A stretch of DNA of 64,000 nucleotides from the NCBI GenBank assembly GCA_963833225.1, contig CAWHXD010000019.1, positions 1 to 64,000 of the forward strand. Direction: 5' to 3'. The notes beneath the pieces were generated by a model, which ran no database searches, was not told where the DNA came from, and saw only the letters and a program-made list of their open reading frames with translations. This document shows positions 1 through 32,985 of the stretch, piece after piece; position 1 is the stretch's first letter; each line of letters starts with the position of its first letter. This DNA is from an uncultured Chloroflexia bacterium (GTDB lineage Bacteria; Chloroflexota; Limnocylindria; Limnocylindrales; CSP1-4). The translations under genes were made by a program, and so were the position numbers.

Positions 1-6
1 CGACGC

Positions 7-1051
7 TCACTGGATCAGCCCGATGAAGTTCGTCCTCTCGTCGCAGTTCGGATCCGTCGTCGCGGAGCACGGAGGGGATCCGAACCCGGCAGGCACCCCT
101 GGGTATGAGTCGGTTCCACGAAACGGCCCGTGAGTGTCTTGACCGCAGGCTCGGATCGCGAAGTCAGAACGAAGGCGGCCACGCCCGTGATCTCGTACTG
201 AAGGTTGGCGCCGTTCAGGCCGTTCGTCTGCTTCCAGACCGGAAGGTAGACCACTGTCTGATTCAGGATGTAGTCGTCGAGGCAACCCCGGAGCGTAGCG
301 TCATTCTTCGCGCCGTCGGAGCCGCTGAACCACTAGGAAACAGAAACGCAGGGTTGTCAGGATGGCACACCGAGTCGCGCAGATCAGGATCGCTGAACGG
401 CGGGCGCGGAGGCAGGTTCCAGCTCAGCCAGCCGAAGTTGCCAGGCAGATCGTCGCTGCCTGCCGTCAAGTCGTGGCTCTGGCCCACCAGCCAGTCGTAA
501 TCGATGACTGCGATGGGCAGGAAATGTCGGGGGGCGGGGTGGACAGCTCGACGTGGACGCCGTCGCGGTGGCAGCGACGTCCCAGTGGTCTTGTCCGACC
601 ACCCTGAGGAAGAAGGTGCCCGGGCTGCGGGTCGTCGTGACAGTCACGCCCTGGGCGCCAGTTGGAATATCCCCGGTCGGCACCACGTCCCCGAGTGATG
701 AAGTGGTGAGATCCGAGTGAACGGCCACGTATTGGGCCGCCCAGGTGCATGGATTGGTGCATCCGTTGACGATGGCACGTGGTCGACGGCCGCATAGACC
801 GACGAACCGTCAAGCCCGCTTGCGGGATCCAGATACCACTCGGCGATGATGCGCGTGCCCGCCATCGCCGCCAAGTCAGCGGTGTTCTGTGCTCCGCGTC
901 GCTCTTTGAACGCCACACCGGTGTCGATCACGAGACCGACGAGAAGGAGCATGGCGACCAGTCCACCTGCCATCAACGGAATGATCTGTCCGCGTTGGCC
1001 GGACGAACGGCGCCGCCCTTCGATGGACGTCTGGGCTCAATTCGGCTGCAT
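7..1051 (-). pseudogene. TadG-like Tad minor pilin, broken by several frameshifts and an early in-frame TGA (assembly error or pseudogene)
   Basis: Prepilin-like RGQIIPLMAGGLVAMLLLVGLVIDTG...AQNTADLAAMAG (ORF 644..976) continues in other frames: GAQGVTV..TFFLRVVG..WDVAATATA (384..728), PGNFGWLSW (263..487), VYLPVW..YEITGVAAFVL (15..254), and ends IGLIQ like paralog 2958..4133 (IGVQLIR). Confidence 0.75.
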
Positions 1052-1064
1052 CTGGTGCCCTCGC

Positions 1065-1506
1065 TCAGTTGTTGACAAGGACCTGGGCGGTCGCTTCGAT
1101 GTTGAACGGATTCAGGCCGGCCACGTTCATCAGTTGGCCGATGACGGGAGTCAGGAGTCCAAATGACCCTTCAACCTTCACCTCGAGCGTGTCGAGCTGG
1201 CTGCAGGGCTGACCGTCGGGTGATCGCTTGATGCAGGTCGCGGTGACCGTCACAGGACCCAGACCAGCGATCTCATCTCCGGTGTGTGACTCGATGTCCC
1301 CTAGAGCAGTTGCCGCTCGTGCCTGGACGGAGCCCCAGCGGGCCCCCTCCCTCGCCGCTTCAGCAAGCGCGTTGTTCGCATGACGAGGCGACCGATGTCG
1401 ATGAGGCCGAACAGCAGCAGGATGAAGACAGGGAAGACGAGAGAGAACTCGACGAGCGCCTGACCCCTGCCGCGCCCGGCGGTGCGTGGCGCAAGAGGCA
1501 GGATCT
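1065..1506 (-). pseudogene. TadE-like minor pilin with two apparent 1-bp deletions
   Basis: [30 protein letters not shown] then shifts frame to [16 protein letters not shown]...LLTP...ATAQVLVNN. Restoring one T at ~1505/1506 gives an ATGA stop/start overlap; restoring one T at ~1381/1382 gives LVYANN. Confidence 0.75.
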
Positions 1507-2612
1507 TTCGAGCTCACCGTGACGGTGCCGCTCAAGCACGGACGCTGGCTCCCCGCGCGCGGATCCTGGCCCTTGACCACGTAGTCGTTGTTGGGAGGGC
1601 GTTGCGCCGTGAAGTTGGCGAGCCTGAAGCCGGCGCCGGTCCAGATCGCCTGGGCTTGCGTGACCGTCTTGCCGATGTCCTCCATCGTGGGAATGGTGCA
1701 CATCGCAGGCGTGGCCGACGGCGTCGGTGTGGGCGTAGGTGTGGGCGTGGCACTGGGCGTGGGCGTGGGGCCCGGCGGTGCGGTCGGGGTCGGGGTCGGT
1801 TCAGGCGTCGGCGAAGGGGTCGGCGTCGGCGAAGGGGTTGGAATGGGGCTGTTGCTGACCGTGATCTCCACGATGGAGCAGTCGCCAACGGTGCCGGGAA
1901 GGACGCTCTGGTATTGGATTGCCTGACCGCCCGGGCCAACGGTCGTCACCGTGGTGGAGAAACCCGCCGCGTTTGTCCAGACGTCCTGCGCCTGGTTCAG
2001 CTTGGTCCCATTTCGGAAATCCGGCACGACGCACGAACCGGGCGGGGGTGGGGCGGTTGGAGTCGCCGTGGATACCGGATCGATCGGGGCACCGCCGATC
2101 GTGAAGCTCGAAAGGACGACCGACGTTGCGTTGGCGTTGAGGATGATGCTGTCGCCCACGATCGACCCGATGATCGGCGTGACGACATGGAAGGTTGCCG
2201 TCAGGCTGACGCGGTACTGATCCCCGTCGGCGCAGTCAGCGAGCGCCTTGCCGGGCCCGCTCAAGTCGGTTTCTCCGGGCCCATAGCAGCGAGCGGTCAA
2301 CTCATCCGGGACCAGACCGTCGAGCTCGGTCGTCACCCGAGCCGTCACGTTCTGTGGATCGAGGCAGCCGGGTGTGACATTGCTATCACACGTTGGGTTG
2401 CGAGCCCCGAAGAATGCCCCTTCCTTGGCGGCGTTCTGCATCGTGATCGTCATCACGTATGCGCGGCCAAGGTCGACCGCGCCGAGCACGATCAGCAGCA
2501 TAAGCGGCAGGACCAACGCGAACTCGACCAGGGATTGGCCGCGGCCGAGGCGGCCGGTGGTGGCGAGCCGCGCCCGGGACAGGCGTCGTGCGATTGGCGT
2601 ACGTCGGTTCAT
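1504..2612 (-). CDS. TadE-like pilin with two PASTA-like domains and a Pro/Thr linker (stop apparently lost by an indel)
   Basis: MNRR...[13 protein letters not shown]...DLGRA...NAAKEGA; CVVPDF...[11 protein letters not shown]...QSVLPG and CTIPTM...[10 protein letters not shown]...QDPRAG. The ORF track fuses it to the next gene. Confidence 0.8.
1708..1848 (-). repeat. Coding low-complexity (Pro-Thr)n linker (approximate bounds)
   Basis: [47 protein letters not shown] between the two PASTA-like domains. Confidence 0.85.
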
Positions 2613-2734
2613 CGGGCTCCCCGAGTGACCGCCGGGGCAAGACGGTCGCGAAGGCTGTGAGTCGGTATCCGCGTCAGCGATGCAAGCGTGGCGGGCACAG
2701 ATCCGACGAATCGACCCCATACATTGGCGCCGTG

Positions 2735-2754
2735 ACCTTGCATAGCCCCTTGCA
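2735..2754 (-). promoter_or_regulatory. Putative transcription-factor site upstream of tad cassette 1
   Basis: ACCTTGCATAGCCCCTTGCA; 17/20 identical to 6074-6093; CCTT(G/A)C direct repeat with 12-bp period. Confidence 0.6.
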
Positions 2755-2957
2755 GACATGCCTCTCGGTGCGCATGGACAACGGCGGGCTATGACGATCT
2801 GGCTATGTCCGCCGCGTGTTCCGCCCAGGCTTTTTTCCGGCGCCTCCGCTCCCCGGGTGACCGTGAGTGGGCCGGCCGGTCGCGGAGGCGCACGATCGGT
2901 GGCCAGCCTTGCGGTCCGGATTCGCAGCGGCGCGTCCTGTCACCGCTTGCGTGTCCC

Positions 2958-4133
2958 TCAGCGGATCAGCTGGACGCCGATCGCCTCACCGTTGTAGACG
3001 TCGAGGGATCCGACGGGTCCGGCGGTGATGTAGCGGACGAACCAGCCGGCGATGCAGCCGTCTGAGGCATTCCCGGTGACGAACGGGACCATCGGCGTGC
3101 CGTAGGTGGGTGAGATCGTCCGCTCGCACGGCTCGGTTGCGTGGTTGTTGGGCTTGTTGCCCTCGTACGACATGTAGTCGAGGTAGAACGCCGCGATCCG
3201 CACGACGTGGTACTGCGCGTTCGAGCCGCTGCCCGTGACGCAATCGTTGTCGCAAACGGGGATCAGGACGACCGAGCCCTGGAGGCCCGCGGCGTCGATC
3301 GCGTCGCCGACCTTCTTCTGGCAGTCGGCCCCGGTATCGGTGTCCACGTCGACCGGGAACGTGTCGAACTGGATGGCCGGTGGCGTGAGCACTTCCTCGC
3401 CGCAATCCAGGTTGGGGTCCAGGTCCAGGAACATGAACGACCCGCCGTCCTTGCACAGCGGCACGACGTACTCGGTGCCGTCCGGATGCGTGGACCCGGG
3501 ATTGCTCATGAACCACATGGAGGTCTTGTTCGGGTCGTCGAACGTCTGCATCATCCCGTTGGGCAGGCAGTCGATCGGGCTCACCGGGAGCACCATCGGC
3601 ATGAACGTCCCGCCGGTCAGCCTGCCCATGACGGCGGTTGCGTCGGCGCTCGCATCGAGGCTGTTGAGCCCGATGGCTCGCCCGAAGGTGGTCCCGAACG
3701 AGCGCACCCCGGTCACACGAACCCCCTGGGCCTTAGGTGGCGGGGGCAGGCCGGGACCGACACTGCCGACCTCGACCCACTCGCCGGGGCTCGTGGCAAC
3801 GAGCCCGGTGCCGGCGATGTACTGGCCGAGCACGTTGGTGTAGTACGCCGTGAAGGAGGAAAGGCCGTTGTCGTCCGCGATGTCCTGCATCCAGGCCGCC
3901 ACATCCTCGTCGTCCTTGGCCGTGCCCCCGAGCCGTTGTGCCAGCACGGTGGCCCCCGCATGCGCGACGGCATCCGCGGAATTCTGCGCGATGCGCTGGT
4001 TGGCGTAGGCGTTGCCGCCTTCCACGACGAGCGCGACGCCGGCCACGATGGCAACCATCGCCAGCGCGGCGACGACGATGATCTGGCCGGCTTCCCGGCT
4101 GGGTTGGCGCCGGCGTGCGCGACCGGTGCTCAT
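2958..4133 (-). CDS. TadG-like Tad minor pilin/tip protein
   Basis: EAGQIIVVAALAMVAIVAGVALVVEGG...AQNSADAVAHAGA; Cys-rich C-terminal domain with YHVVRIAAFYL. Confidence 0.85.
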   Translation of the reverse strand: MSTGRARRRQPSREAGQIIVVAALAMVAIVAGVALVVEGGNAYANQRIAQNSADAVAHAGATVLAQRLGGTAKDDEDVAAWMQDIADDNGLSSFTAYYTNVLGQYIAGTGLVATSPGEWVEVGSVGPGLPPPPKAQGVRVTGVRSFGTTFGRAIGLNSLDASADATAVMGRLTGGTFMPMVLPVSPIDCLPNGMMQTFDDPNKTSMWFMSNPGSTHPDGTEYVVPLCKDGGSFMFLDLDPNLDCGEEVLTPPAIQFDTFPVDVDTDTGADCQKKVGDAIDAAGLQGSVVLIPVCDNDCVTGSGSNAQYHVVRIAAFYLDYMSYEGNKPNNHATEPCERTISPTYGTPMVPFVTGNASDGCIAGWFVRYITAGPVGSLDVYNGEAIGVQLIR

Positions 4134-4143
4134 GCTGGGTACC

Positions 4144-4680
4144 TCAGGGTGCGGGCGCGATAGGAAAGGATCCATCGTTGCTTGGGCACGAGGACGCACT
4201 GGGAAAGTCGCTGTTCGGACAGCGGTACTCCACGCCGAGCACGGAACGGGCCTCGAAGGTCACTCCGCTGCCGAAGATGAAGTTGGACACGATGGGCGTG
4301 ATCGGGCGGTAGGTCGCCTCGAACCTGACGATGGCGACGCATCCGACGGCGACGAGGTCGCAGGGCGCAGCGAGGTTCGGCGTGCCATCGGCCTTGACCT
4401 GGTAGAAGGCGACGGACACGCTCGGGTCGTTGAGCTCCACGATGGCGGTCTGGCTCTTGGCCCGGGTCACGATCGTCGGGATGTCCTGGTTGACGATCGC
4501 GAGCCGGGCACCCTCCCGGGCGGCGTTGGTCAGCGTGTTGTACGCGAACACGGCCCGCCCGAGGTCGAACAGCGACACCACCAGGAGGATGAAGATCGGC
4601 AGGACCAGCGCGAACTCCACGAGGCCCTGGCCGGTCGATCGTCCCGGGCGGCGCAGTCGCGACTGCAGCGGGCGGCTCAC
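4144..4680 (-). CDS. TadE-like minor pilin
   Basis: GTG start overlaps the upstream TGA; [14 protein letters not shown]...DLGRAVFAYNTLTNAAREGAR...ITP. Confidence 0.88.
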   Translation of the reverse strand: MSRPLQSRLRRPGRSTGQGLVEFALVLPIFILLVVSLFDLGRAVFAYNTLTNAAREGARLAIVNQDIPTIVTRAKSQTAIVELNDPSVSVAFYQVKADGTPNLAAPCDLVAVGCVAIVRFEATYRPITPIVSNFIFGSGVTFEARSVLGVEYRCPNSDFPSASSCPSNDGSFPIAPAP

Positions 4681-6014
4681 GGCTTGCTCACGTAGATGTC
4701 GCTCTCGCAGGGCACCATGGTGCCACCGACGATCGACTGCGAAAGGATCTTGAAGGCCTTTGGCGCCGCCGGGGCGCCGGCCGCCCGCTCCACGGTGCCG
4801 GTGACCCGGTCGGTGTTCTCCCAGATGTCCTTGGCGTCGTCGAACCATTGGCCGATCAGGCTTGGCACCCGGCAGTAGCCGGGGGTGACGGTGATGAATG
4901 CCGTCTTGGTCACGCTGGCGGTCGGTGCCGGCGCGGTGTACGTGACGGTCAGGGACACCGTGAACGACCCGGCGTTGGCGTACGTGTGGGACACCTGCGT
5001 AGCGATCCCGCTGACATCTGGTGTGCCGTCGCCGAATGTCCACGTGTAGTTGGTGCCGCCGGCCGTGGACGCGTCATCGAACGTCACGGACTGCCCGGGG
5101 GTGATGGCCTGGACGTCGGCGGTGAAGTTGGCCGTCGACAAGCCCAGGACGAGGACCGTCATGTAGGCAGGAGCGCCCGTGCCGATCGCGTTTGAGGCTG
5201 TCATCGTCACCAGGTAGGTGCAGTAGCCGAAGGCATCTGGCGATGCGCACGTGAACTGGTGCGGGACATCCTGGAGGGTGGAGCTGACGCCATCCCCGAA
5301 GTCCCAGGACCAACCGCTGGGCGAGCCGCCCGAGCTGTCGCGGAAGTCGACGATGACGGTCGGGCCCACGGTGGACAGCGTGCCCGGCGAACCCGCCGAG
5401 GCGAATACGCTGCTGTTGCCGATGAAGGCGGTGCTGGGCGCGACCACTGCACCACCACCCCCGCCACCCCCGCCACCGGCCGGGGCCACGGCGGTCATGC
5501 CTGCCTTCACCGGGAAGTCCGATTCGGCCGTCACCGCGATCCGGTCGCCCAGGATGTTGCTGATCATCGGGGTCACCACGGAGAAGTAGCAGGTCAGCTG
5601 GACCGTCACCTCGTCGCCCAGCCCGACATCGATGCCATCGCCGTTCCGGTCGGTGAAGACTGGATCGGGGACGATCGGGTCGCCGCCTCCGGTGACCGGC
5701 AGGTCGCAGTTGGTCGCGGACGCGTCCTCGAGCACCTTGTTCCGATACTGGGTCTGGACGGTCGTGTCGGGGGTCACGCTCCAGGCGAGCGGGTTGTTGG
5801 CCGCCTCGTTGGCCGCGATTCGGGCCATGTTCTGGACGTTGATGTAGCCGAGGTAGATCCGGCCGAAGTCCAGGGCGACCACGACGAGCAGGAGCAGGAC
5901 GGGCAGGATCAGGGCGAACTCGACCAGCGACTGGCCGCGCGGACGGACCCGCGGGGCCGGCGATGCACCGGCGCGCGCCCGCTCAGCGGAGAGGCGGCGG
6001 AGGTCTGGTGTCAC
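4677..6014 (-). CDS. TadE-like pilin with two PKD domains and a C-terminal PASTA-like domain
   Basis: [13 protein letters not shown]; poly-Gly linker; PKD motifs WSWDFGDG and YTWTFGDG..HTYANAGSFTVSLTVT; CRVPSLIG...AKDIW...QS..PC. Confidence 0.88.
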   Translation of the reverse strand: MTPDLRRLSAERARAGASPAPRVRPRGQSLVEFALILPVLLLLVVVALDFGRIYLGYINVQNMARIAANEAANNPLAWSVTPDTTVQTQYRNKVLEDASATNCDLPVTGGGDPIVPDPVFTDRNGDGIDVGLGDEVTVQLTCYFSVVTPMISNILGDRIAVTAESDFPVKAGMTAVAPAGGGGGGGGGAVVAPSTAFIGNSSVFASAGSPGTLSTVGPTVIVDFRDSSGGSPSGWSWDFGDGVSSTLQDVPHQFTCASPDAFGYCTYLVTMTASNAIGTGAPAYMTVLVLGLSTANFTADVQAITPGQSVTFDDASTAGGTNYTWTFGDGTPDVSGIATQVSHTYANAGSFTVSLTVTYTAPAPTASVTKTAFITVTPGYCRVPSLIGQWFDDAKDIWENTDRVTGTVERAAGAPAAPKAFKILSQSIVGGTMVPCESDIYVSKP

Positions 6015-6073
6015 AAGGTGTCCCCTGGTTGGACGCGGCCATAGGCCGCCGTACCGGGGACGTTGCCCCCGGC

Positions 6074-6093
6074 ACCTTGCCTAGCACCTTACA
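6074..6093 (-). promoter_or_regulatory. Putative transcription-factor site upstream of tad cassette 2
   Basis: ACCTTGCCTAGCACCTTACA; matches 2735-2754 at 17/20. Confidence 0.6.
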
Positions 6094-6208
6094 ATCGCCG
6101 ATCCGATGGTCCTGCCCCGCGATAGTCCTGCCGGGGCTGATCCGATCAGGTGGTGGGATCACCCGTGGAGCGTCCGTGGTGGCCCGTCGCTCGGGCGGGG
6201 CGCGGGGG

Positions 6209-7663
6209 CTACGACTCCTCGGGGGCCTCGGCGGGGAGCCGGATCGTGAAGCTGGCGCCGAGGCCCGGTCTCGGTGGCTCCAGATCCAGCTCGCCGCCCA
6301 TCGCGCGGCACAGGGCGCGGGACACGTATAGCCCGAGGCCCGAACCCTCCCCGGATGGACGCCCCGTTCCGCGCTCGAACCGCCCGAACAGGCGCTCTCG
6401 ATCCTCGTCACGCACGCCGGCCCCGTGATCGGTGATGGTGATCACGAGGTCCTTGGTCGCGGACTCGAGCGCCACGATGACCTCGATGCCCGTCCTCCCG
6501 CCATAGCCCACCGCGTTGTCGAGCAGCGCCCACAGCACCTGGTCGAGCTGGTCGCCGTCGCCGAGGGCGAGCCATCCTTCCGAGCGGTCCTCGAGCGTGA
6601 ACGGCACGTCGGCGGCGCCCAGGGCCTCCCACGTCCGGCGGACGCGGGGAACCGGCGCGAACACCTCGAGGCGGGATCGCAACGCGCCCGACTCGATCCG
6701 GCTCACGGTCAACAGCTGGCGGACCATCCGCGACAGGCGATCGGTCTGCTCGGTGATGATCTCGAGGCGACGCTCGGGGCGCTCGGTGGCCAGCTGCGTG
6801 GCATATCCGCGGATGCTGGCCAGGGGCGTCTGGAGGTTGTGCGAGACCCCGCGGAGGAAGTCGTCCTTTGCCCGGTCGAGGTCCACCAGCCGCCGGTTCT
6901 GCGCCTCCACCCGTGCGTAGAGCTGGGCGTTGCGGATCGCGGCCGAGATCTCGATCGCGAACAGGTCCAGCAGGTCTCCGTCGGCACGCTCCCAGCGGCG
7001 GGTGGCCGGGAGGTGTCCGGTGATGACGCCCAGCCCATCGACGCCCGCGACGCGCAGCTCCGCGCGGACGGGCACGGGCTCACCCGGCACCGGCTCCTCG
7101 ACGGGCACCTCCCGCGGATCCACCAGCAGCACCTCGCAGTCGATCATGCCAAACGCCACCCGGGCATCCACGGCCGCGCGACGGGCGATGGCCCCAGGGG
7201 CCTCGTCGGGAGTGATCCCCTGGAGGGCGTCGAGCAGTCTCCGGAGCTCCTGGTTGCGACGCGCCAGGTCCCGGGCGAGCCGGTTCTGGCTCTCGGCGAG
7301 GCGACTGATCTCATCGTCGCCGGGCAGCTCCAGGCCGGCGTCGGCGTCCCCGGCCGTGACCCGGTCCACGGAGCGGGTCAGCGCTCGCAGCGAGCCGGCG
7401 AGGTTGGCCGCGAGGAGGGCGGCGAGCACGACGGCGAGCACGACTGAGACGGCGATGGCGAGAAGGAGGCCACGGGCCAGCGCGTCGTCGGTTCCAGGTT
7501 CCAGATCGACCAGGAGGAGCACGACGATGCCAAAGGCCGCGACCGGGATCACCGCAGACACGATCAGGCCGAGGGTCAGGCGCGCCCGGAACCCGGGACC
7601 CGAGGGCAGGCGGCGTCCGCCGTGGTCCGCGAGATCGGAGGGGTCGGCGGGCGGTCCGCTCAT
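6209..7663 (-). CDS. Sensor histidine kinase (2 TM, HAMP, GAF-like, HisKA, HATPase)
   Basis: H-box VSHNLQTPL; N-box LLDNA; DHGAG; GSGLGL. Confidence 0.92.
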   Translation of the reverse strand: MSGPPADPSDLADHGGRRLPSGPGFRARLTLGLIVSAVIPVAAFGIVVLLLVDLEPGTDDALARGLLLAIAVSVVLAVVLAALLAANLAGSLRALTRSVDRVTAGDADAGLELPGDDEISRLAESQNRLARDLARRNQELRRLLDALQGITPDEAPGAIARRAAVDARVAFGMIDCEVLLVDPREVPVEEPVPGEPVPVRAELRVAGVDGLGVITGHLPATRRWERADGDLLDLFAIEISAAIRNAQLYARVEAQNRRLVDLDRAKDDFLRGVSHNLQTPLASIRGYATQLATERPERRLEIITEQTDRLSRMVRQLLTVSRIESGALRSRLEVFAPVPRVRRTWEALGAADVPFTLEDRSEGWLALGDGDQLDQVLWALLDNAVGYGGRTGIEVIVALESATKDLVITITDHGAGVRDEDRERLFGRFERGTGRPSGEGSGLGLYVSRALCRAMGGELDLEPPRPGLGASFTIRLPAEAPEES

Positions 7664-8394
7664 GGGACCGGCGGTGAGCCGGCCGACACGAGGCGGTACC
7701 CGATCCCGCGCACGGTGAGCAGGTGGACGGGCCTGGCTGGGTCGACCTCCACCTTCTGGCGCAGACGGCGCATCGTGACCCATACGTAGCTCGGGTCGGC
7801 GTCCTCCGTGTCGGCCCAGCCCCGGGCGAGCAGGGTCTCCGTGGTCACGGTCTGGCCGAGGTTGGCTGCCAGCGCGTACAGCAGCCGTGACTCGGTGGGC
7901 GTGAGGGTGACCGACTTGCCATCCACCTCCGCCAGTCGCTGGTGGAGCTCCAGGGCAAGCTTGGGCCCCAGCTCCAGGCGCTGGCGCGGGACCCGGTCGC
8001 CCAGGCGCCGCAGGACCCGCTGGATGCGCGCCCGCAGCTCCGGGTAGTGGTACGGCTTGGTCACGTAGTCCTCGGCCACCTCGTCGAGGAGGTCGGCCTT
8101 GGAGTCCGCGGTGTCGATGGCGGACAGGACGATGATCGGCAGGTCGGCCCGGGCCTTCACCTCACGAGCAAGCGTCAGCCCGTCCATCCGGGGCATGAGC
8201 ATGTCGATGACGAGCAGGTCCGGCCACGACTGGCCCAGGCGGCGGAGCGCCTCCTCGCCGTCGCGGGCGGTCTGGACGTCGTAGCCGTCCGCCTCGAGCT
8301 GGTCCGCCAGGATGACGAGCAGGTTCGGATCGTCGTCCACGATCAGGATCCGCGGCGTCGTGACGCCGTACGGGCTGGGGCCGCCGGGCAGCAT
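7660..8394 (-). CDS. OmpR/PhoB-family response regulator
   Basis: ILIVDDD, DLLVIDMLMPRMDG, DYVTKP, RRLRQKVE, TVRGIGYRL. Confidence 0.93.
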   Translation of the reverse strand: MLPGGPSPYGVTTPRILIVDDDPNLLVILADQLEADGYDVQTARDGEEALRRLGQSWPDLLVIDMLMPRMDGLTLAREVKARADLPIIVLSAIDTADSKADLLDEVAEDYVTKPYHYPELRARIQRVLRRLGDRVPRQRLELGPKLALELHQRLAEVDGKSVTLTPTESRLLYALAANLGQTVTTETLLARGWADTEDADPSYVWVTMRRLRQKVEVDPARPVHLLTVRGIGYRLVSAGSPPVP

Positions 8395-8471
8395 GTCGCG
8401 AGGATAGCCGTCCACAGGGCATGGTGCCGGACGCGCCGGGGTCCTGGCGACCTCGCCTACACTTGCCCGCG

Positions 8472-10190
8472 ATGTCGGACCTGCCCATCCGTCCCTACGA
8501 GCGCCGGCCGTCCGAGTACCAGCCATGGGACCCGCGCACGGCCGAGGTCGCTCGCGAGATCGCCCGGCTGGTGGCCACCGCGCGGCCCGGCACCGCGGTG
8601 GAGCATGTCGGCAGCTCCTCGGTCCCGGGCCTGCCCGGCAAGAACATCGTGGACCTGGGGATCGAGGCGGAGCCCGACGAGATCCCGGCGCTGGTGGACG
8701 ACCTGCTCTCGCTGGGCTTCGGACGCCAGGTCGGTCCCGCGCCGTTCCCGCCGACCCGCCCGATGCTCACCGGGGCGGTGGTCCACGACGGCGCCGAGCT
8801 CCGGGTGCACCTCCACGTGATGCCTCCGCGCCGCTCCGAGCTGCGCGAGATGGTCGCCTTCCGCGATGCGCTTCGCGCCGACCCGGACCTGCGCGCCGAG
8901 TACGCCGCGGCGAAGGACCGCATCGTCTCCGGGAGCCCGCAGGGAATCCCGCAGGAGCTCTACACGGTGAGCAAGAGCGGCTGGGTCCAGGAGACGCTCT
9001 ACCGCCTGGGGATTCGGCGCGGCCCGGCGGACGCCCCGGATCTGCTGGCGCCCGGGGCCGTGATCGGGGTGATGGGCGGCGGGCAGCTGGGCCGCATGCT
9101 CGGGTTCTCGGCGAGGGCGATGGGCTATCGCCTGATCGCGCTCGATCCGGATCCCGCGTGTCCCACGGCGGCCGTGGCCGACGAGATCATCGTCGGCCGG
9201 TACGACGACGTGGACGCCGCCCGGCGGCTGGCCGCGCGGAGCGACGTGGTCACCTACGAGCTGGAGCATGTCGGCATCGAGGCGGCGTCGGTCGCCGCGG
9301 ACATCGCGCCGCTGCGTCCCGGCCTGGCCGCGCTGCGGGCGACGCAGGACCGGCTCGCGGAGCGGCGGTTCATCCGGGAGATCGGGGAGCTCGCCGCGCC
9401 GTGGCGGGAGATCCGTGGCGTCGCGGAGGCCGAGGCGGCGGCGGAATCGCTGGGCTACCCGGCGCGGCTCAAGCTCCCGCTGGGCGGCTACGACGGTCGC
9501 AGCCAGGTGCGGATCACGGCCCGCGGCGAGGTTGCCGGCGCGGTGGCCGCGCTGGGCGGCAGCGATGGCCGGCCCCTGCTGCTCGAGCGCGAGATCGACT
9601 TCGAGGGCGAGCTGTCGGTGGTGGCGGCCCGCGACCGCTCGGGGCGGACGCTCGCGTTTCCCATCTCGCGCAACGTCCACGACGCGGGGATCCTGGCCGA
9701 GAGCGTCGCACCGGCGGCGATCGACCCGGTCGTCGCCCTCGACGCGCGCGAGATCGCGGACAGCGTCGCCCGGGGGCTGGACCTCGTCGGCGTGCTGACC
9801 GTGGAGCTGTTCCAGCTTCGCGGCGGCGGGCTGATGATCAACGAGCTGGCGCCACGCGTGCACAACAGCGGCCACTGGTCGATCGAGGGCGCCGCGACGT
9901 CCCAGTTCGAGCAGCACCTGCGGGCGATCCTCGGGCTGCCGCTCGGCTCCGTTGAGCCGCATGGGGCAACAGCGGTCGTGAACCTGCTGGGCACCGGGCC
10001 GGACCGCGCCGCGCGGCTTGCCGGCCTGGGGTCGGCGCTCGCGGATCCCGGGGCGCATGTCCACGTGTACGGCAAGCGCCGCGTGTTCGACCGGCGCAAG
10101 ATGGGTCACGTGACGGTCGTCGGGGTGGATGCCGATGACGCGCTCGCGCGCGCTCGCGCCGCACGCGCGGTGCTGAGCTGGGAGGACTGA
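8472..10190 (+). CDS. purK: N5-CAIR synthetase PurK with an N-terminal GrpB/UPF0157 domain
   Basis: N-terminal [31 protein letters not shown] (GrpB-like); then [36 protein letters not shown] (PurK); directly upstream of purE. Confidence 0.92.
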
Positions 10191-10194
10191 GCCG

Positions 10195-11240: not shown

Positions 11241-11242
11241 GC

Positions 11243-21642: not shown

Positions 21643-22476
21643 ATGACCGACCGCGACACCGACGAGATGGATCAGGCGGCCGGCCCCGTCCCCCTCGTGC
21701 GAATGGAGTTCCCGGCAGGCGGGGACGCCCTCGAGCACGTCGCGCTCCTCATCCTCGACCGTCCGAGGCAGCTCAACGCCCTCTCGTTCGGCCTCGTCGC
21801 GCAGCTCGGGGAGCGGCTGGCCGCGCTCGACGAGGATCCGGGCTGCCGGGCCATCGTCATCACCGGGTCGGGCTCGAAGGCGTTCGCCGTCGGCGCCGAC
21901 ATCCGCGAGCTGGCCATGCAGACCGAGGGGTCCCTGCGGGATGCCGACCCGTTCGCGCCGCTCGACCGCATCGGCCACCTGGGCACGCCCGTGATCGCCG
22001 CGGTCCGCGGCTATGCGCTGGGTGGCGGCTGCGAGCTCGCCATGGCCTGCGACATGATCGTCGCCGGCGACGACGCCCAGCTGGGGCAGCCGGAGATCCG
22101 GATCGGGGTGATCCCGGGCGCCGGCGGCACCCAGCGGTTGACCCGCGCGATCGGCAAGGCCCGGGCGATGGAGCTGATCCTGACCGGCCGGCGGATTGAC
22201 GCCCAGGAGGCGCTCGCGATGGGGCTGGTGTCGCTCGTGGTGCCGGCGGCCGAGACCGTGGAGCGGGCGCTGGAGCTGGCGGGCCGGATCGCGGCGATGC
22301 CGCCGCTCGCGGTGCACGCCGCCAAGGCCGCCGTCGTGGCGGCCCAGGAGCGCCCGCTCGGCGAGGGTCTACGCGACGAGCGCGACCGCTTCGAGGCGCT
22401 GTTCGCGACCGAGGACCAGAAGGAGGGCATGGGTGCCTTCCTGGAGAAGCGCCCCCCGTCCTGGAAGGGACGCTAG
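21643..22476 (+). CDS. Enoyl-CoA hydratase (crotonase)
   Basis: GADI, ALGGGCELA, GQPE..IGVIPGAGGTQRL, EGMGAFLEKR. Confidence 0.94.
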   Translation: MTDRDTDEMDQAAGPVPLVRMEFPAGGDALEHVALLILDRPRQLNALSFGLVAQLGERLAALDEDPGCRAIVITGSGSKAFAVGADIRELAMQTEGSLRDADPFAPLDRIGHLGTPVIAAVRGYALGGGCELAMACDMIVAGDDAQLGQPEIRIGVIPGAGGTQRLTRAIGKARAMELILTGRRIDAQEALAMGLVSLVVPAAETVERALELAGRIAAMPPLAVHAAKAAVVAAQERPLGEGLRDERDRFEALFATEDQKEGMGAFLEKRPPSWKGR

Positions 22477-24694
22477 CCGGGCGGGAGACCAGCGCGACCC
22501 GGGCTGTCGGCCAGGGGCTGTCGGCCAGGCGCGGCCCAGACAGCCGCCGCGCCCCCCCGCCTGCCTCACCCGCCCCGCCTGCGATGCCACGAGGATCGGA
22601 CTCCGCGTCGCCGCTGCCGGCCGGGAGCCGGACCTCGAACCGGGCACCGACGGCACCGGCGCGGCACGTGATGTCCCCACCCAGGGTCCGCGCCAGGCCG
22701 CGCGCGACGCTGAGGCCGATACCGGTGCCATCGGTGCGGCTCCCAGCCCGGCCCCGCACGAAGCGCTGGAAGATCCGCCGGCGCTCGTCGGGGGCCACCC
22801 CCGGGCCCTCGTCCTCGACCGCAAGCACGACCGTCGCCTCCGGCTCCGGCCGCTCGGGGATCACCTCGACCCGGATCGTCCCGGCCGGCGCGTAGCGTGC
22901 CGCGTTGTCGAGCAGGATCCACGCGATCTGCTCCGTTGCCGCCGCGTCGGCGAACGCGACGACACCGGGTCCGCGGTCCAGCACGCTCACGCGGTCCGCG
23001 ATCCCCAGCTCCGCGGCGATCCGGCGGACGAGCGGAGGGAGCGCCACCGGCTCGCCGTCCAGCTCGAGCGTGCCTGACTCCATGCGCGACAGGATCAGCA
23101 CCTGGTTCACCAGCCGCGCCAGCCGGCGCTCCTCGAGCTTGATGGCTTCGGCGCGCTCGCGGACGAACGAGCTGCTCGCGAACTCCTCGAGGTCGGTCGC
23201 CGCCAGCTCGATGGTCGCGAGGGGTGCCCGCAGATTGTGGCTGATGCTGCGCAGGAACTCGCGCTGGAGCCGGTTCAGCCGGTCGAGCCGGGCCGCCCTG
23301 CCGGCCGCCTGTCGATATGCCTCGACCTCGTCGAGGACGCTGCCGGCCAGCAGCGCCATCACCTCGAGGGACGCCTGGTCGCCGTCCGTCCAGGCGCCTC
23401 CGCCAGGCTCGCCGATCTCCAGCAGCCGGTCGTCCCGGCCGAGGCCCATGGTCGCCGTGGCGCGGGCCGGACGCATCCCGGATCCCGCCGGATCATCTGG
23501 GCGCACAGACTCCGGGCCACCCGCCCAGCCGAGCGTGTCCCCGTCGGCGGCGACCAGCCGGCACCAGGGGACGCCGAAGATGTCCATGGCCGCCCCGGCG
23601 AGCCGGTTCGCCGCCTCACGGGGCGACGCGTTGATCGGGATGGCGGCGGTGGCCTCGAGGCAGCGGCGGAGCGTCGCCTCGCGCCGGTCCAGGGTGCGGA
23701 CGAGGCGGTCCAGGCCCGCGGACAGGCGCGCGATGTCGTCCCCGCCGCCCGTGGCCGCCGAGGGTGGCACGCGGCCGTCGGCGACGGCGATCAGGCCATC
23801 GTGGACCACGCCGAGCCGCCGACGCAGGATGACCGAGAGGAACACCGCCAGCAGGGCGGCGACGGAGCCCGTGAACGCCAGCAGGGCCAGCACGAGGAGC
23901 GGCAGGGAGCCCGCCGCGGCCTGCAGCGCCGAGACCCGGGTCGCCAGGACGAGGCGCTCGCCGCCCGCCCCCGGCCCCAGCGGGAACCGGCGGCTGATCA
24001 CGTCGCCCGTCCTGACCACCGCGTCGCTCGTGACCGTCGCGGCCACGCCCGCGTCGGTGACCGAGGCATCGGTGGTCACCGTGACCGAGCCATCCGCCCC
24101 GACGATCGCGACGGCGAACCCGGTGAACGCCGCGATGTCGGCGGCGAACCGCGCCCCAAGCGGGCGGGCGAACACGATGCGCCCGAGCTCCTTGTCCCCG
24201 GCACCCAGGATGCGGTCGTCGTCCACCAGGTAGACCTGGCCGTCGATGGTGAGCAGGCTGGGGCCGGGCACGAGCTGGCCGGTATCCCCGGCGAGGGCCG
24301 CGGTCAGGGCCGCTCCACCGGCGGTCGCCGTGCCGGTCCCGGCGACCACGACGCCGCCGGCGATCGAGCCCCGCTCCACGAGGAACTCCAGCACGTCGGT
24401 TCGGACGGCCTCCAGGTCACCGGCCTCCACCTGGGCCGCGAAGGTGGTCCACTGCGCGTAGCTGCGGACGAGGTCGTCGAGCGATTGACCGGCGCGGCTT
24501 GCCTCGGCGTTCGCTGCGTCCACGGCGCGATCCGTACGGGCGACCGCGTCGAGCGCCAGCGATTGCTCCACCCGGTCGTACACCAGGATTCCCAGCAGCG
24601 CCACGGGCAGCGTGGCCGCCAGCACCATCGCGATGGCCGCCAGCCGGTGGAAGGGCAGGGAGGCGCCGAACGGCAGCCGGCGCGCCGGGATCAT
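22473..24694 (-). CDS. Sensor histidine kinase (extracellular sensor, HAMP, GAF-like, HisKA, HATPase); 3' end uncertain
   Basis: ISHNLRAPL, LLDNA, DEGPG, GTGIGL, RFEVRLP. The frame runs to 21860 through the convergent gene, so the true stop is probably at 22473 or 22566. Confidence 0.85.
22501..22528. repeat. 14-bp tandem duplication
   Basis: GGGCTGTCGGCCAG twice in succession. Confidence 0.9.
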
Positions 24695-25395
24695 CCCGCC
24701 TCAGCCGCCGGATCGCCCAGCCGGTAGCCGCCGCCCTTCACCGAGTGGAGGAACCGCGGCCGCCCGGGGTCCGGCTCCAGCTTCTGGCGCAACCGCCGGA
24801 TGCTGACCCACACGTACGCAGGGTCGACCCCATCGGCGCCGGCCCACACCCGCGTGAGCAGCTGCTCGGTGGTGACGGTCACCCCGGGGGTCGCGGACAG
24901 CGTCGCGAGCAGGCGGGTCTCGATCGGCGTGAGGTGGATCACGGTGCCGTCCACGATCGCCTCCCGCCGCCGGAGCGCGAGAGACAGACCGTCGCTCACG
25001 GAGACCTCCTCGACGGGGATCCGGTCCTCGAGGCGCCTGAGCACCCGCTCGATCCGGGCGCGCAGCTCCGGATAGTGGAACGGCTTGGTGAGGTAGTCCT
25101 CGGCGAACTGCTGGATCGTCGTCGTCTTGGCCGAGACATCGGAGACGGCGGACAGGACGATGATCGGGAGGTCGGCTCGGCGCTTGATCTCGGCGGCGAC
25201 CCGCTCGCCACGCATGTCCGGGAGCATCAGGTCGAGCAGGATGAGGTCGGGCCATCGTCGATCGACGGCCGCCAGCGCATCCGCCCCGCGGTGGGCGACG
25301 GTGACGCTGTAGCCATCCCGCTCGAGGCGTTCCCGGAGGAACCCGACCAGGCGGACGTCATCTTCCGCGAGCAGGAGACGGGTGGGATCGGTCAT
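24691..25395 (-). CDS. OmpR/PhoB-family response regulator
   Basis: [37 protein letters not shown]. Confidence 0.93.
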
Positions 25396-26159
25396 GGCTC
25401 GTTCCCCAGAAGGGCGTCCGCGGCCGGCGCCGGTGACAGCTTGGGCTTCGGCGTGGGCTTGGGCGGGTGTGTCGGCTTGGGCGGGTGTGTCGGCTTGGGC
25501 GGGTGTGTCGGCTTGGGCTTTGGCGTCGGCTTGGGCGGGTGTGTCGGCTTGGGCTTTGGCGTCGGCTTGGGCTTGGGCGTGGCGTCCGGCCTCGGCGTGG
25601 GCCGGTTGCCCTGGCCGGGCGGGGTCGCAAACGGGCCACCGGGCCGGGTCGCCGGCTCCGGCGTCGCCGCGTCGGCCGCCGTGATGATCGGGGTCCCCTG
25701 CGGCACGGCGCCCGCGGTGTGTCCCGGTCCGGCTCCCGTGTCACCGGCGGCGGGATCGCCCCGGCTCTCCAGGTACCGCACGATGATCGAGGTGGGCGGG
25801 CCCGACTCGGAGACGGAGACCCAGATCGTCACGTCCGGCCGCGCGTAGGCCGTCCAGCCGTCCGTCTCGCCGAGCGACCGGAAGCCCGCGTCGCGGAGCA
25901 TGAGGTCGTAGTCGGCGCGCGCCTCGGCCGGCGCGCGCGCCGAGCGGTACTCGAGGAACGGAACGCCGTTGTCCATCGCGGGCCCCGCTGCCCCGATGGT
26001 CAGCGTCGCGGCCGTCGGAGCGGGGATCAGGTCGCGGGGGTCGCCGGGGGCCGGGTGGACACCGGCGGCGCACGCCGCGAGGACGAGCCCGAGCACGAGG
26101 GGCAGCGGGCGCAGCCGCCAGCCCATCGATCCATGCCCCGATCCCCGTTGAGCGCTCAT
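25392..26159 (-). CDS. Putative lipoprotein with C-terminal PKPTHP repeats
   Basis: [10 protein letters not shown] lipobox, small alpha/beta domain, Pro/Lys/Thr/His tail; ATGA overlap with the response regulator. Confidence 0.72.
25441..25580 (-). repeat. Coding 18-bp tandem repeats (PKPTHP / PKPTPK; approximate bounds)
   Basis: TTGGGCGGGTGTGTCGGC units mixed with TTGGGCTTTGGCGTCGGC units. Confidence 0.9.
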
Positions 26160-26343
26160 GCCACCCGTCCTGCTCACCGCGGTCGACGCCGACGGCGAGG
26201 CGGGGGCTGGCGGACGGACCTGGGCGCGACGACGGGGCGGCGCCCGGGCCGGGCGCCCGAATCCGGGGGACCGCCATAGCCCCCGGGCTGGCGTTCCCGA
26301 AGCGAGTGTAGCCGAGAGGCCCCGTGCTTCTACAATCGATCGC

Positions 26344-27573
<1,230 letters not shown>

Positions 27574-27575
27574 TG

Positions 27576-29502: not shown

Positions 29503-30108
29503 ATGAGTCCCATGCGACCGCCTCACGGCCGCCGATCGCGCCATCGGCATGACCCGTCGTCAGGCGGTGGTCAGGCGCTCGTCGAGTTCTCGCTGGTGAT
29601 CCCGATCTTCCTTGCCATGCTGGTCGGCCTGGTCGAGTTCGCGTTCATCTTCAACGCGGTGCTGGCCACCAACTACGCCTCCCGCGACGCCGCCCTGCTT
29701 GCAGCCGAGGGGGGCTCCGACCTGGGCACGGACTGCGCCGTGCTCCGCGCGGTGGAGGCCGACCTCGGGGCGCCCGCGGACCGGGCCCAGATCCAGCGCG
29801 TCGAGATCTTCCAGGCCACGACGGTCGGGGACCAGATCGGGGCTGCGACGGTCTACGAACGACACGGGTCGTTCAACTGCTCGCTGCCCGACGGCACGCC
29901 GGTGACGGTGCCCTACACGCTGATCGCCGACGGCTACCCCATGAGGGACCGCTGCGACCAGCTCGCCGGCTGCGGCGCCTCGACCCTCGACCACGTCGGG
30001 GTGCGGGTCACGTACCGGCACCTGTATCGAACACCGCTGGGGGCCGGCTTCGGCCCCTGGCTCGACGTCGTGAAGGCAAACTCGATGCGGATGGAGCCGG
30101 TGCTGTGA
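29503..30108 (+). CDS. TadE-like minor pilin
   Basis: [14 protein letters not shown]...ASRDAA...YRTP...MRMEP. Confidence 0.88.
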   Translation: MSPMRPPHGRRSRHRHDPSSGGGQALVEFSLVIPIFLAMLVGLVEFAFIFNAVLATNYASRDAALLAAEGGSDLGTDCAVLRAVEADLGAPADRAQIQRVEIFQATTVGDQIGAATVYERHGSFNCSLPDGTPVTVPYTLIADGYPMRDRCDQLAGCGASTLDHVGVRVTYRHLYRTPLGAGFGPWLDVVKANSMRMEPVL

Positions 30109-30746
30109 GCATCCGACGCTGGCCACGCGGCCGCACGGCGACCGCCGCCGGAACCGCCGCCGAGCCTGAGCGCGGTCAGAGCCTCGTCGAGTTCTCGATG
30201 ATCGTGCCGGTCTTCCTGCTGATCCTGCTCGGGATGCTGGAGTTCGGCCTCGCGTTTGACCACCTCCTGACCCTGAGCTACGCGACCCGCGAAGGCGCGC
30301 GCGCCGGGTCGGCCCTGGCCGACGGCGCGAAGCTCGGCGCCAACTGCAACCAGGTGGACACCTACGTCGTGTCCGCAGTCGAGCGGGTCCTGACCTCGGA
30401 CGGGTCGCCTGTTCGCGACCACCTGGGGCAGGTGTCGTCGATCCGAATCTTCAAGGCCGACGCGGCCGGCCACCAGATCGGGGGCAACGTGAATGTCTGG
30501 GTGCCGGGCGTTGGCCCCACCGTCGACGGCCGACAGCTCGATTTCGCGCCGACCGGCGGCACCGGATGGGCGAGCTGCACCCGTCACAATGCCACGTCCA
30601 ACCCCGACTCGATCGGGGTCAGCATCAGCTACACCTACCAGGCTGTCACGCCGCTGTCGGGGATCCTGCAGTTCATCGGTGGCGCCGGCACCAGCACCCT
30701 CGCCATGTCCGATCGGTCGGTCATGGCCCTGAACCCCACGGACTGA
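30105..30746 (+). CDS. TadE-like minor pilin
   Basis: [13 protein letters not shown]...ATREGAR...VTP...MALNP; GTGA overlap. Confidence 0.88.
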   Translation: MSIRRWPRGRTATAAGTAAEPERGQSLVEFSMIVPVFLLILLGMLEFGLAFDHLLTLSYATREGARAGSALADGAKLGANCNQVDTYVVSAVERVLTSDGSPVRDHLGQVSSIRIFKADAAGHQIGGNVNVWVPGVGPTVDGRQLDFAPTGGTGWASCTRHNATSNPDSIGVSISYTYQAVTPLSGILQFIGGAGTSTLAMSDRSVMALNPTD

Positions 30747-30750
30747 CGCC

Positions 30751-32985
30751 ATGCCGACCACCCACGACCCCAAGGTCCAAACGACCGAGACGCGCTACGG
30801 GATCCGGCGCCGCCGCGGCCGCCGTGCGACGCAGCGGGGCCAGATCGTCGTCCTGTTTGCGGGCGCCCTGATCGCGCTGCTCGCCCTGTGCGCCGTGGTC
30901 ATCGACGTCGCCTGGTACTGGACCAACAACCTCCGGATCCAGCGCACCGCCGACGCCGCCGCGCTCGCGGGCGTGGTGTGGCTGCCGAACCGGCCGGACA
31001 CCGCCGCGACCGTGGCGATCGCCGAAGCGGCCAAGAACGGCTACGTCAACGGCGTTGACGGCGTGACGATCACGCCCAGCGTGGATCCGGCCAACGATCG
31101 CCGCCTGCGGGTCGTGGTCAGCGCGCCGGTCGGCACATTCTTCGCACGAGTGGTGGGCGTGGACCAGTGGCCGGCCAGCCGGACGGCGCTCGCGGACTAC
31201 GTGCTCCCCGTGCCCATGGGCAGCCCAGCCAACTACTACGGGGTGGGCTTCTTCGAGGGGCTGGTGCCACACGTGACCACGGGCAGCTCCCAGTCGACCG
31301 GCTGCGGGACGGGCTCGTGGTCGACCTCCTGCACGGGCAAGGTCCCGAGCACGGCGCCATCGGGTGGCCAGTGGACCCCGTCCCGCGGCAGCATCGAGGC
31401 GTCGGTGCAGTCCAACAACAACAGGTACGCCCGGGAGACCACCGACGGGGAGCGGCAGGAGTGGTCCGCGTTCGGCCTCCAGTCAGGCATCAGCAACCCG
31501 GGCGCCAACGAGGACCTCGTCATCGAGGGTCTCGAGGTCCGGCTGAGCGATGCGTTCGTCTCGGCGAGCTGCTCCAACTCCACGATCGGCGTGGAGGTGT
31601 CCTGGGACGGCGGCAGCTCCTGGTCCACGGCCCAGACAACCCCGGCGCTCCTGACGAACACCTCGAGCGGTGACTACACCCTGGGCGACAACAGCTCCAC
31701 GGCCGCGTGGGGCGGCCACACCTGGAGCCGCAACGACTTCTCGGACTCGAACTTCCGGGTTCGGCTGACGGCCAACAAGGGCTGCTCCTCGGGTGGCACC
31801 TCGCTCAACGTTGACGTGCTCGAGGTCCGGGTGACGTGGCGGCTCGATACCAGCACCTGGTCCCCGCAGACGCTGACCGTGAACGACCCGCTCACCGGCA
31901 CCGCGCTCGCCTCCCAGGGGTTCTGGGGCGCCATCTTCACGTCCGGTGGCTGGCGGATGAACGGGGACAAGTACGCGCCCGCACACATCGGCGACCATGC
32001 TCCCGGCCCCCTTTCCGGGAACGACCCGAGCCCGACCTATGACGCCAACGGCTACGACTACACGATCGAGCTGCCGGGCGGCTCAGGGGATGTCCGGCTG
32101 TTCGACCCGATCTTCTGCGCGACCGGGTACAACACCCACGGCGGGTCCTACGGCGCCGGCGACCACTGGACGTCGGGAGGGACGAGCGAGCTTCCGGTCG
32201 CGATCACCTACCGCCTGTACGACACCCACGGGACCCTCCAGGACCTCACGGACGATGGCCCTCCCCTCGTGACGCTGGCGTACGACCCGGGCAACAAGTC
32301 GCTCGGTGACTTCAGTGGCGCGTTCGGGACCCCCTCGAACCAGGGGTCCTCGAACAGGCAGGACTGCTCGAACGACCCCGCGCACAACCAGTGGGTGCAG
32401 ATGGCCTCCGGACTCGCGTCCGGGTCATATCGCCTCAACGTGAACACCAGCCTGCAGGGGTCGAACGCCAATACCGGCGCCGAGAACCTGTTCTCGATCT
32501 GGGTGCATTCCGCCGGCAAGGCGCGGGTCTACGGTGGTGGGCGGATGGCCGCCTACACCAACCTGGACACCGGCCAGCAGAAGTTCTACTTCGCGCAGAT
32601 CGAGCAGGTCCACGCGGGCAAGACCATGGTCATCCACCTGTTCGATCCGGGCGAGACCAGCGGCAATGCCTATCTGCGCCTGCTCAGCCCGGACGGCAAC
32701 GTCTACCACCGCCAGCGGTTTGACTGGGTGTCAGACGACGGACGGTCGGGGACCAACGTGGACCAGATCCAGACGTCGAACGGGAGCCCGTTGTTCGACA
32801 ACAAGGAGATCACGATCACGGTGCCGCTGCCTCCCACCTACGGGCAGTCTGGCCTCAATCCGCCCGGCGACATCACCGACGAGCCCGGCTGGTGGCTGAT
32901 CGAGTACGAGCTCGCGAACGGCAACGACACGACCACCTGGGGGGTTGAGATCCGGGGCAACCCCGTGCACCTCGTGACGCCGTGA
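30751..32985 (+). CDS. Large TadG-like tip protein/adhesin
   Basis: RGQIVVLFA...VIDVA...QRTADAAALAG; long Ser/Thr/Gly/Trp-rich beta region including Asp-box-like SWDGGSSW. Confidence 0.87.
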   Translation: MPTTHDPKVQTTETRYGIRRRRGRRATQRGQIVVLFAGALIALLALCAVVIDVAWYWTNNLRIQRTADAAALAGVVWLPNRPDTAATVAIAEAAKNGYVNGVDGVTITPSVDPANDRRLRVVVSAPVGTFFARVVGVDQWPASRTALADYVLPVPMGSPANYYGVGFFEGLVPHVTTGSSQSTGCGTGSWSTSCTGKVPSTAPSGGQWTPSRGSIEASVQSNNNRYARETTDGERQEWSAFGLQSGISNPGANEDLVIEGLEVRLSDAFVSASCSNSTIGVEVSWDGGSSWSTAQTTPALLTNTSSGDYTLGDNSSTAAWGGHTWSRNDFSDSNFRVRLTANKGCSSGGTSLNVDVLEVRVTWRLDTSTWSPQTLTVNDPLTGTALASQGFWGAIFTSGGWRMNGDKYAPAHIGDHAPGPLSGNDPSPTYDANGYDYTIELPGGSGDVRLFDPIFCATGYNTHGGSYGAGDHWTSGGTSELPVAITYRLYDTHGTLQDLTDDGPPLVTLAYDPGNKSLGDFSGAFGTPSNQGSSNRQDCSNDPAHNQWVQMASGLASGSYRLNVNTSLQGSNANTGAENLFSIWVHSAGKARVYGGGRMAAYTNLDTGQQKFYFAQIEQVHAGKTMVIHLFDPGETSGNAYLRLLSPDGNVYHRQRFDWVSDDGRSGTNVDQIQTSNGSPLFDNKEITITVPLPPTYGQSGLNPPGDITDEPGWWLIEYELANGNDTTTWGVEIRGNPVHLVTP

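Follow-up and report, generated by a model that had tools for sequence, protein, structure and literature searches.

The window analyzed here is the first 64 kb of contig C19 (CAWHXD010000019.1) of bin G000, assigned to an uncultured Chloroflexia bacterium, and it contains three gene units that each encode, in the same order, two TadE-type proteins and one TadG-type protein, relatives of the minor pilins of Tad (Flp) pili. The bin comprises 3.89 Mb in 20 contigs and is 86% complete with 3% contamination; the named homologues belong to bins of Candidatus Limnocylindrales and of the Chloroflexota. The guanine-cytosine (GC) content of the window is approximately 71% and drops to 65-68% across the first 6 kb, where two of the units lie. 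A first-pass annotation made from the sequence had proposed that the three units are interchangeable pilus tips loaded onto one machine encoded elsewhere. Their coordinates and gene order are borne out by Pfam profiles and translations, and the genes are as follows (lengths in amino acids, aa; profile scores in bits).

Unit 1, 7-2612, minus strand: order TadE, TadE, TadG.
Unit 1 gene 1, 1065..2612, minus strand: TadE-like prepilin with a Pro/Thr linker and two PASTA-like repeats, ATG at 2612; TadE 56.4 bits.
Unit 1 gene 2, 1065..1513, minus strand: TadE-like, N-terminus in the frame 1513-1380 and remainder in another frame, 1379-1065; TadE 44.7 bits (N-terminal piece).
Unit 1 gene 3, 7..1036, minus strand: TadG-like, in five frame segments with junctions near 780, 530, 335, and 110; Tad 42.1 bits.
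Unit 2, 2958-6014, minus strand: order TadE, TadE, TadG.
Unit 2 gene 1, 4677..6014, minus strand: TadE-like prepilin, 445 aa, with two PKD domains and a PASTA-like end; TadE 47.3 bits.
Unit 2 gene 2, 4144..4680, minus strand: TadE-like, 178 aa, GTG start overlapping the stop of gene 1; TadE 65.2 bits.
Unit 2 gene 3, 2958..4133, minus strand: TadG-like, 391 aa from the ATG at 4133, pilin module and Cys-rich distal domain.
Unit 3, 29503-32985, plus strand: order TadE, TadE, TadG.
Unit 3 gene 1, 29503..30108, plus strand: TadE-like, 201 aa; TadE 42.7 bits.
Unit 3 gene 2, 30105..30746, plus strand: TadE-like, 213 aa, start overlapping the stop of gene 1; TadE 52.8 bits.
Unit 3 gene 3, 30751..32985, plus strand: large TadG-like, 744 aa; Tad 32.7 bits.

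All six expected TadE N-termini score above the Pfam cut-off for TadE (PF07811, 22.9 bits), at 42.7-65.2 bits, and all three TadG N-termini score above that for Tad (PF13400, 22.3 bits), at 42.1, 26.5, and 32.7 bits for units 1, 2, and 3, respectively. The prepilin motif ascribed to every gene is indeed present: GQxLVEF or GQI(I/V), followed by a hydrophobic helix, occurs in 9/9 translated N-termini, with GQ(S/A/G)LVEF in all six TadE translations. Start and stop codons overlap within units 2 and 3, as expected for operons. The longest open reading frame (ORF) of unit 2 gene 3 begins at 4199. The public protein for unit 3 gene 1 has 170 aa and no TadE Pfam match and seems to begin inside the prepilin helix; this gene call probably omits part of the N-terminus (29503-29596).

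The distal parts agree less well with their first description. Two PASTA repeats had been assigned to unit 1, an assignment that is weak: the first supposed repeat has no hit at E ≤ 0.1, the best match (19.5 bits) lies below the PASTA cut-off (PF03793, 23.2 bits), and the two repeats resemble each other weakly (E 0.004). In unit 2, the two PKD stretches are secure (PF18911/PF00801; PKD_4 E 8e-20; 71.1 bits against a cut-off of 27), while the PASTA domain named with them is not (16.8 bits). The third PASTA match among the units, of 16.4 bits, is also below the cut-off. Tad_C (PF09977, cut-off 22.1 bits) comes close in unit 2 (21.7 bits) and in a piece of unit 1 (19.3 bits) and has no match in unit 3. 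“Asp-box-like” is a fair description of the unit 3 TadG, which carries one SWDGGSSW motif.

The AlphaFold2 model of the unit 3 TadG protein has a predicted local distance difference test (pLDDT) score of 87.6 and consists of a long alpha-1 helix (residues 25-75), a pilin-like sheet (106-150), and further beta domains. Residues 180-365 are modelled as a jelly-roll sandwich of the carbohydrate-binding module (CBM) kind, matching CBM32, CBM36, and discoidin folds with Z scores of 8-9.3, somewhat above the search tool's quoted background, and a root-mean-square deviation of approximately 3 Å over about 125 residues; such a head on the large TadG suggests glycan targets. A Foldseek search with the whole model returns reelin repeats first (E 6e-7) at a low template modelling score of about 0.1. 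The model of the unit 2 TadG is middling (pLDDT 74), and its distal domain has no Foldseek match at E ≤ 0.001; the best VIA match (Z 6.7) fell on the pilin module. For unit 3, the two mature TadE proteins and residues 31-375 of TadG were predicted together as a trimer with a separate alignment for each chain. The result, 0.46 against 0.01 for the best of three controls, with at least 75% contact agreement between runs and a partner pLDDT of at least 76, gives weak support.

As the first-pass annotation stated, the window encodes no flp, tadA, tadB/C, or prepilin peptidase: the T2SSE, T2SSF, Flp, A24, and RcpC profiles have no match in C19:1-64000. The bin has a single Tad locus, on contig C14, with three Flp-like genes, RcpC, TadZ, TadA, TadB, TadC, and a DUF192 gene. 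The Flp-like genes encode a G/QGLAEY motif and score 22.5-28 bits, below the Pfam cut-off of 32.2. A profile search of the bin contigs finds no TadE or TadG gene beside this locus. The TadZ of this locus (L017, C14:96941-98305) is a TadZ/CpaE-type ATPase with an N-terminal receiver domain, and the flp genes are immediately preceded by genes for a LuxR-type regulator and a kinase-like protein. A secretin has no match in the genome, which fits a single-membrane cell. Elsewhere, contig C5 carries a type IVa pilus set of PilB-, PilC-, and PilT-like genes with an A24 peptidase (C5:154172), and a second A24 peptidase gene is found on C8 (C8:974348). Outside the window, C19:647461-649563 encodes a second CpaF/TadA-type ATPase, which shares 63% identity with the TadA of C14 and carries a fused Rid-like C-terminal part; it is conserved throughout the genus, and TadB/TadC platform genes were not seen near it.

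The bin holds seven TadE-TadE-TadG cassettes, five on large contigs and two on the small contigs C3 and C11. Besides the units of the window, the large contigs carry the following.

Cassette, C17:244470-246974: intact.
Cassette, C5:195249-197963, minus strand: frameshifted in genes 1 and 2, approximately 40 kb from the C5 type IVa pilus genes.

A count of seven for the main genome was dropped, as the small contigs are syntenic to the large ones at 64-82% identity. Thirteen small contigs (C1-C4, C9-C13, C15, C16, C18, and C20; 205 kb in total) show this level of nucleotide identity in long syntenic stretches to the seven large contigs, and most likely they belong to a second, related organism that was co-binned, so that gene counts for the bin are inflated. 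The C3 cassette is the positional counterpart of unit 3, with proteins 54%, 54%, and 46% identical (genes 1, 2, and 3) and flanking DNA 67-76% identical, and the C11 cassette has no counterpart at the syntenic C6 site; cassette content therefore differs between close relatives. By sequence comparison, the cassettes are old paralogues whose three genes diverged together. Set against the assembly loci genome-wide, there are five large-contig cassettes and one TadB/TadC platform, that of C14. An assembly locus of its own was found adjacent to no triplet: the C14 locus lacks TadE and TadG, and the arrays of relatives are not beside tadA.

Directly upstream of unit 2 lies a two-component system, and putative promoter boxes precede units 1 and 2.

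Histidine kinase, 6209..7783, minus strand: HAMP, HisKA, and HATPase_c domains (Pfam); longest ORF, start approximate.
OmpR-family response regulator, 7660..8526, minus strand: Response_reg (E 2.5e-27) and Trans_reg_C (E 2.1e-20) domains (Pfam).
Box GCAAGG-N6-GCAAGG, 2736..2753, minus strand: exact match, 124 nucleotides (nt) upstream of the unit 1 start.
Box GTAAGG-N6-GCAAGG, 6075..6092, minus strand: one mismatch, 61 nt upstream of the unit 2 start.

The GCAAGG-N6-GCAAGG direct repeat is thus found upstream of units 1 and 2 and also of the C17 cassette. Its exact form occurs three times in the whole 3.89-Mb bin, two of the three at cassettes. In 229.5 kb of 20 related loci it occurs 13 times, and in 13/13 cases a TadE-type signal follows on the same strand 139-330 nt downstream (nine signals identified by pattern match and four by reading translations). 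The second repeat is located 8-11 nt before a -10-like element, (G/C)AT(A/C)GT. PhoB-type promoters have two direct repeats about one helical turn apart at the -35 position, approximately 10 bp upstream of the -10 element. The boxes described here are alike in their paired repeats before a -10-like element and in an OmpR-family regulator encoded nearby; they differ in the half-site, GCAAGG, and in their 12-bp spacing, and their activity is a prediction. The neighbouring OmpR-type regulator would be the protein that binds them. The first-pass annotation had the units being switched one for another. Promoter boxes shared between units point instead to co-induction: the array probably responds as one regulon rather than through switching of individual units.

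Around the box, about 110 nt are conserved between the upstream regions of unit 1 (2600-2960, minus strand) and of the C5 cassette (C5:197963-198172, minus strand). Joining the end of C5 to the start of C19 would produce a three-cassette array, which the orientation and low GC would fit; overlaps between contig ends are absent from all contigs of the bin. The conservation after the box corresponds to the ribosome site and the start of gene 1, and the idea of a riboswitch there was discarded; a search of the window and six related loci against Rfam at gathering score yields one tRNA and nothing else. A one-mismatch box in the Tad locus (C14:99401, opposite strand) was likewise set aside, being within chance for a pattern with 89 such sites in the bin.

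Comparison with related genomes, as the first-pass annotation advised, shows that copy number, order, and content of the cassettes vary. The survey of TadG-type genes in the genus rests on the 150 of 164 PF13400 matches that were listed, so that counts drawn from it are lower bounds. Among these, matches occur in 35/36 other genus genomes, 1-10 in each and often in runs about 3 kb apart, with arrays of 1 to 5 cassettes that lie on different contigs from tadA or far from it. In a sister family of 1-Mb genomes, one of 24 has a TadG-type N-terminus among the matches listed. Order is not fixed either: G024 has a unit 1-type cassette before a unit 2-type cassette, and G008 has unit 2 followed by another type. 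The motor varies little, a full-length TadA copy 92-96% identical being present in 31/40 other genus genomes. Copies of the OmpR-type regulator, 85-96% identical, are found in 38/40 other genus genomes (two of the matches are partial). At 85% identity or more, the regulator is present in 34 of the 36 genomes with TadG coordinates, and in at least 20 of these 34 a TadG match lies within 10 kb on the same contig.

Taken together, these observations are best explained if the cassettes are alternative tip or priming sets of one Tad machine, partly organized as a two-component regulon, a reading to which we assign a probability of about 0.6. The proposal of interchangeable tips for one machine elsewhere is supported in part, by several cassettes and one remote Tad locus, and is limited by the broken state of unit 1 and the weak trimer prediction. 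The three units would be minor-pilin (pseudopilin) operons of a Tad/Flp pilus in a monoderm member of the Chloroflexota, each supplying a TadG-type protein and a pair of TadE-type proteins, all bearing a class III signal that an A24 prepilin peptidase would cut. The cleaved proteins would enter the single Tad machine encoded on another contig, where their N-terminal helices may bundle into a trimer that would initiate pilus growth and remain at its tip, by analogy with KilL/KilM/KilN of Myxococcus. The tip would then display variable parts, including the CBM-like jelly roll of the unit 3 TadG and the PKD and PASTA-like modules of the first TadE of unit 2. Units 2 and 1 belong to a tandem array of variable copy number and order behind the conserved OmpR-type two-component system, with GCAAGG-N6-GCAAGG repeats, placed like a PhoB box by a -10-like element, ahead of many cassettes. 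Binding of all sets to one pilus and differences in their specificity are likewise suggested by the Myxococcus analogy, and a location at the tip, assembly as trimers, and control by the adjacent regulator are predictions of the same model. A more ambitious version, which we regard as tentative and somewhat short of even odds, is a programmable Tad pilus head, in which the kinase and OmpR-type regulator switch on, via the boxes, an array of 1-5 copies whose order and content change rapidly from species to species, with cassettes gained, shuffled, and lost to decay while the motor stays 92-96% identical.

Several points weigh against this interpretation. (i) The second CpaF paralogue and the type IVa pilus system mean that a single machine is not strictly proven, and the 86% completeness of the bin limits any such count. 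(ii) Frameshifts in unit 1 and in the C5 cassette leave only three of the five large-contig cassettes looking functional. (iii) The trimer prediction is a weak pass, and hydrophobic pilin helices may bundle in a model regardless of binding. (iv) Among the matches listed, 14 of the 34 regulator-bearing genomes have no TadG match within 10 kb of the regulator; several of these are fragmented, with the regulator at a contig end, and others, including the single-contig G006, appear truly unlinked. (v) The 20 related loci contain 27 boxes when one mismatch is allowed, compared with 57 TadG matches, so not every cassette has a box, and upstream of unit 3 there is only a single GCAAGG half-site. (vi) Two sites in the window supplied the box pattern in the first place, and the relatives alone constitute an independent test of it.

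The best-surviving alternative is that the cassettes are redundant or decaying paralogues, with one set priming the pilus and the others drifting without a distinct binding role through gene birth and death. It draws support from unit 1, which keeps the order TadE, TadE, TadG with which it was first described, although not as three intact genes: at least five frameshifts interrupt it. Gene 1 lacks its own stop codon and reads through gene 2 to 1065; gene 2 changes frame near 1379, gives high-scoring segment pairs in two frames (tblastn), and has no ATG, GTG, or TTG start. Copies of the unit 1 type are broken in three of the four examined, at different places in each. In G024, genes 1 and 2 are broken beside an intact 348-aa TadG, and in G018 the TadG gene (gene 3) is split; in G030 the cassette is intact, with a gene 1 stop just before gene 2 and a 347-aa TadG. 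The frameshifted C5 cassette and the variation in array size from 1 to 5 point the same way.

The cause of the breaks in unit 1 can be argued in two directions. Of the five frameshift sites in the window, one falls within a C6 run and the other four lie elsewhere, which leans towards real mutations without proving them, and ORFs elsewhere in the window are intact up to 1849 aa, so the assembly is not generally error-ridden. On the other hand, the three broken unit 1-type copies come from few-contig assemblies and the intact one from a 300-contig assembly, so that an assembly cause is possible. Public sequencing reads from four runs match only short pieces of window positions 1-6100 (shares 0.00-0.12), and the frameshift sites are uncovered. 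Unit 1 is either a decaying copy or badly assembled at the contig end.

Other observations speak against this alternative, which we consider unlikely. Units 2 and 3 and the C17 cassette are all intact and have high third-position GC. The best match of the unit 2 TadG, in G008, is 92% identical, and those in four further relatives are at 57-78%. At E ≤ 0.001 the large TadG family numbers 636 relatives, with many invariant residues (at the same threshold, unit 3 genes 1 and 2 have 409 and 1099 relatives, respectively), and the promoter boxes are conserved.

A second alternative holds that the cassettes do not form pilus tips at all and instead build a short secretion pseudopilus, or surface adhesins that are anchored in the membrane and share only the prepilin peptidase with the pilus. 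Cell-surface proteins often carry PKD, PASTA-like, and CBM-like modules, and the cassettes are unlinked to flp genes, as this alternative would have it. It leaves the Tad locus without minor pilins of its own, and Myxococcus, according to PMC12075869, loses its pilus when it has no tip set; the TadE-TadE-TadG order and the pilin-like bases also match tip sets, and we consider this alternative improbable. That the cassettes serve the C5 type IVa pilus is very improbable, since 9/9 proteins match TadE/Tad families and share the G/Q...E motif with the C14 Flp pilins, and no cassette was seen adjoining the C5 pilus genes, even though C5 has PilB-, PilC-, and PilT-like genes with an A24 peptidase and carries one cassette about 40 kb away.

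Interpreted as alternative tip sets of one Tad machine, the cassettes have several counterparts in better-studied bacteria. TadE/TadF/TadG of Aggregatibacter and CpaJ/CpaK/CpaL of Caulobacter are prepilin-like Tad minor pilins required for pilus formation, the TadG type being large. Those sets are encoded inside the tad locus, one per locus, whereas the cassettes described here lie apart from the machine. CpaL has been reported with a vWA domain; no vWA family is found by Pfam at E ≤ 0.01 in the three TadG proteins, and the vWA fold is absent from the fold-search match lists of those that were modelled. The type IVa pilus of Myxococcus reportedly has alternative minor-pilin/PilY1 clusters that provide several priming or tip sets for one machine, in a different pilus class and with different protein families.

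The closest parallel is the Kil Tad pilus of Myxococcus xanthus, which has four KilL/KilM/KilN Tip sets homologous to TadE/F/G, three of them at loci away from the machine (Herrou et al., Nat Commun 2025, PMC12075869). According to that paper, any one Tip set suffices for pilus formation and deletion of all four abolishes the pilus, and the authors proposed TadEFG tips in other bacteria too. The concept of several tip sets for one Tad pilus is therefore no longer new, having been established genetically for the Kil pilus. The two systems are alike in having three adjacent TadE/TadF/TadG-type genes, several paralogous sets that are mostly remote, one machine, and a large TadG-type member with a variable distal domain. 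They differ in that the cassettes described here (i) belong to a monoderm member of the Chloroflexota that lacks a secretin match and any link to predation or type III secretion, (ii) have two TadE-family members in place of distinct KilL and KilM, (iii) carry added modules on the first TadE and not only on TadG, and (iv) are arranged in tandem behind a two-component system and share promoter boxes. The Kil tip-gene profiles of that paper matched only Myxococcota, and sequence orthology is accordingly not claimed.

What is new here is the array behind a sensor-regulator pair, the conserved boxes, the turnover and decay of sets beside a constant motor, and the presence of modules on TadE as well. 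PMC12075869 mentions neither two-component systems nor the Chloroflexota, and a literature search, within the text accessible to it, returned no work on Tad minor-pilin arrays, or on their two-component control, in this phylum. Tad pili are widespread adhesion organelles, and how their binding specificity is set was unclear before the 2025 Myxococcus work. An uncultured soil lineage of monoderm Chloroflexota would follow the same logic of many tip sets and one motor, to which it adds a regulatory layer open to test, in the form of a dedicated two-component system and its defined DNA box, and a picture of rapid tip-set turnover beside a nearly invariant motor. On the more ambitious version given above, this would amount to a regulated, fast-evolving adhesin repertoire on the Tad pilus of a monoderm.

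A further two-component system is encoded between the array and unit 3.

Second two-component system, 21860..25395, minus strand: kinase 21860-24694, regulator 24691-25395.

The pair at 6209-8526 has its closest paralogue here (regulator 52% and kinase 33-34% identical by tblastn). This second system lies approximately 4 kb from unit 3, and its counterpart on C3 adjoins the large-TadG cassette of that contig. Just upstream of the second regulator, the window contains short coding-like tandem repeats of GCCCAAGCCGACACACCC-type units (25392-26387, minus strand), and short coding-like tandem repeats of GGCAACGGCCAG-type units are also found upstream of the C3 regulator counterpart (C3:9600-10100, minus strand).

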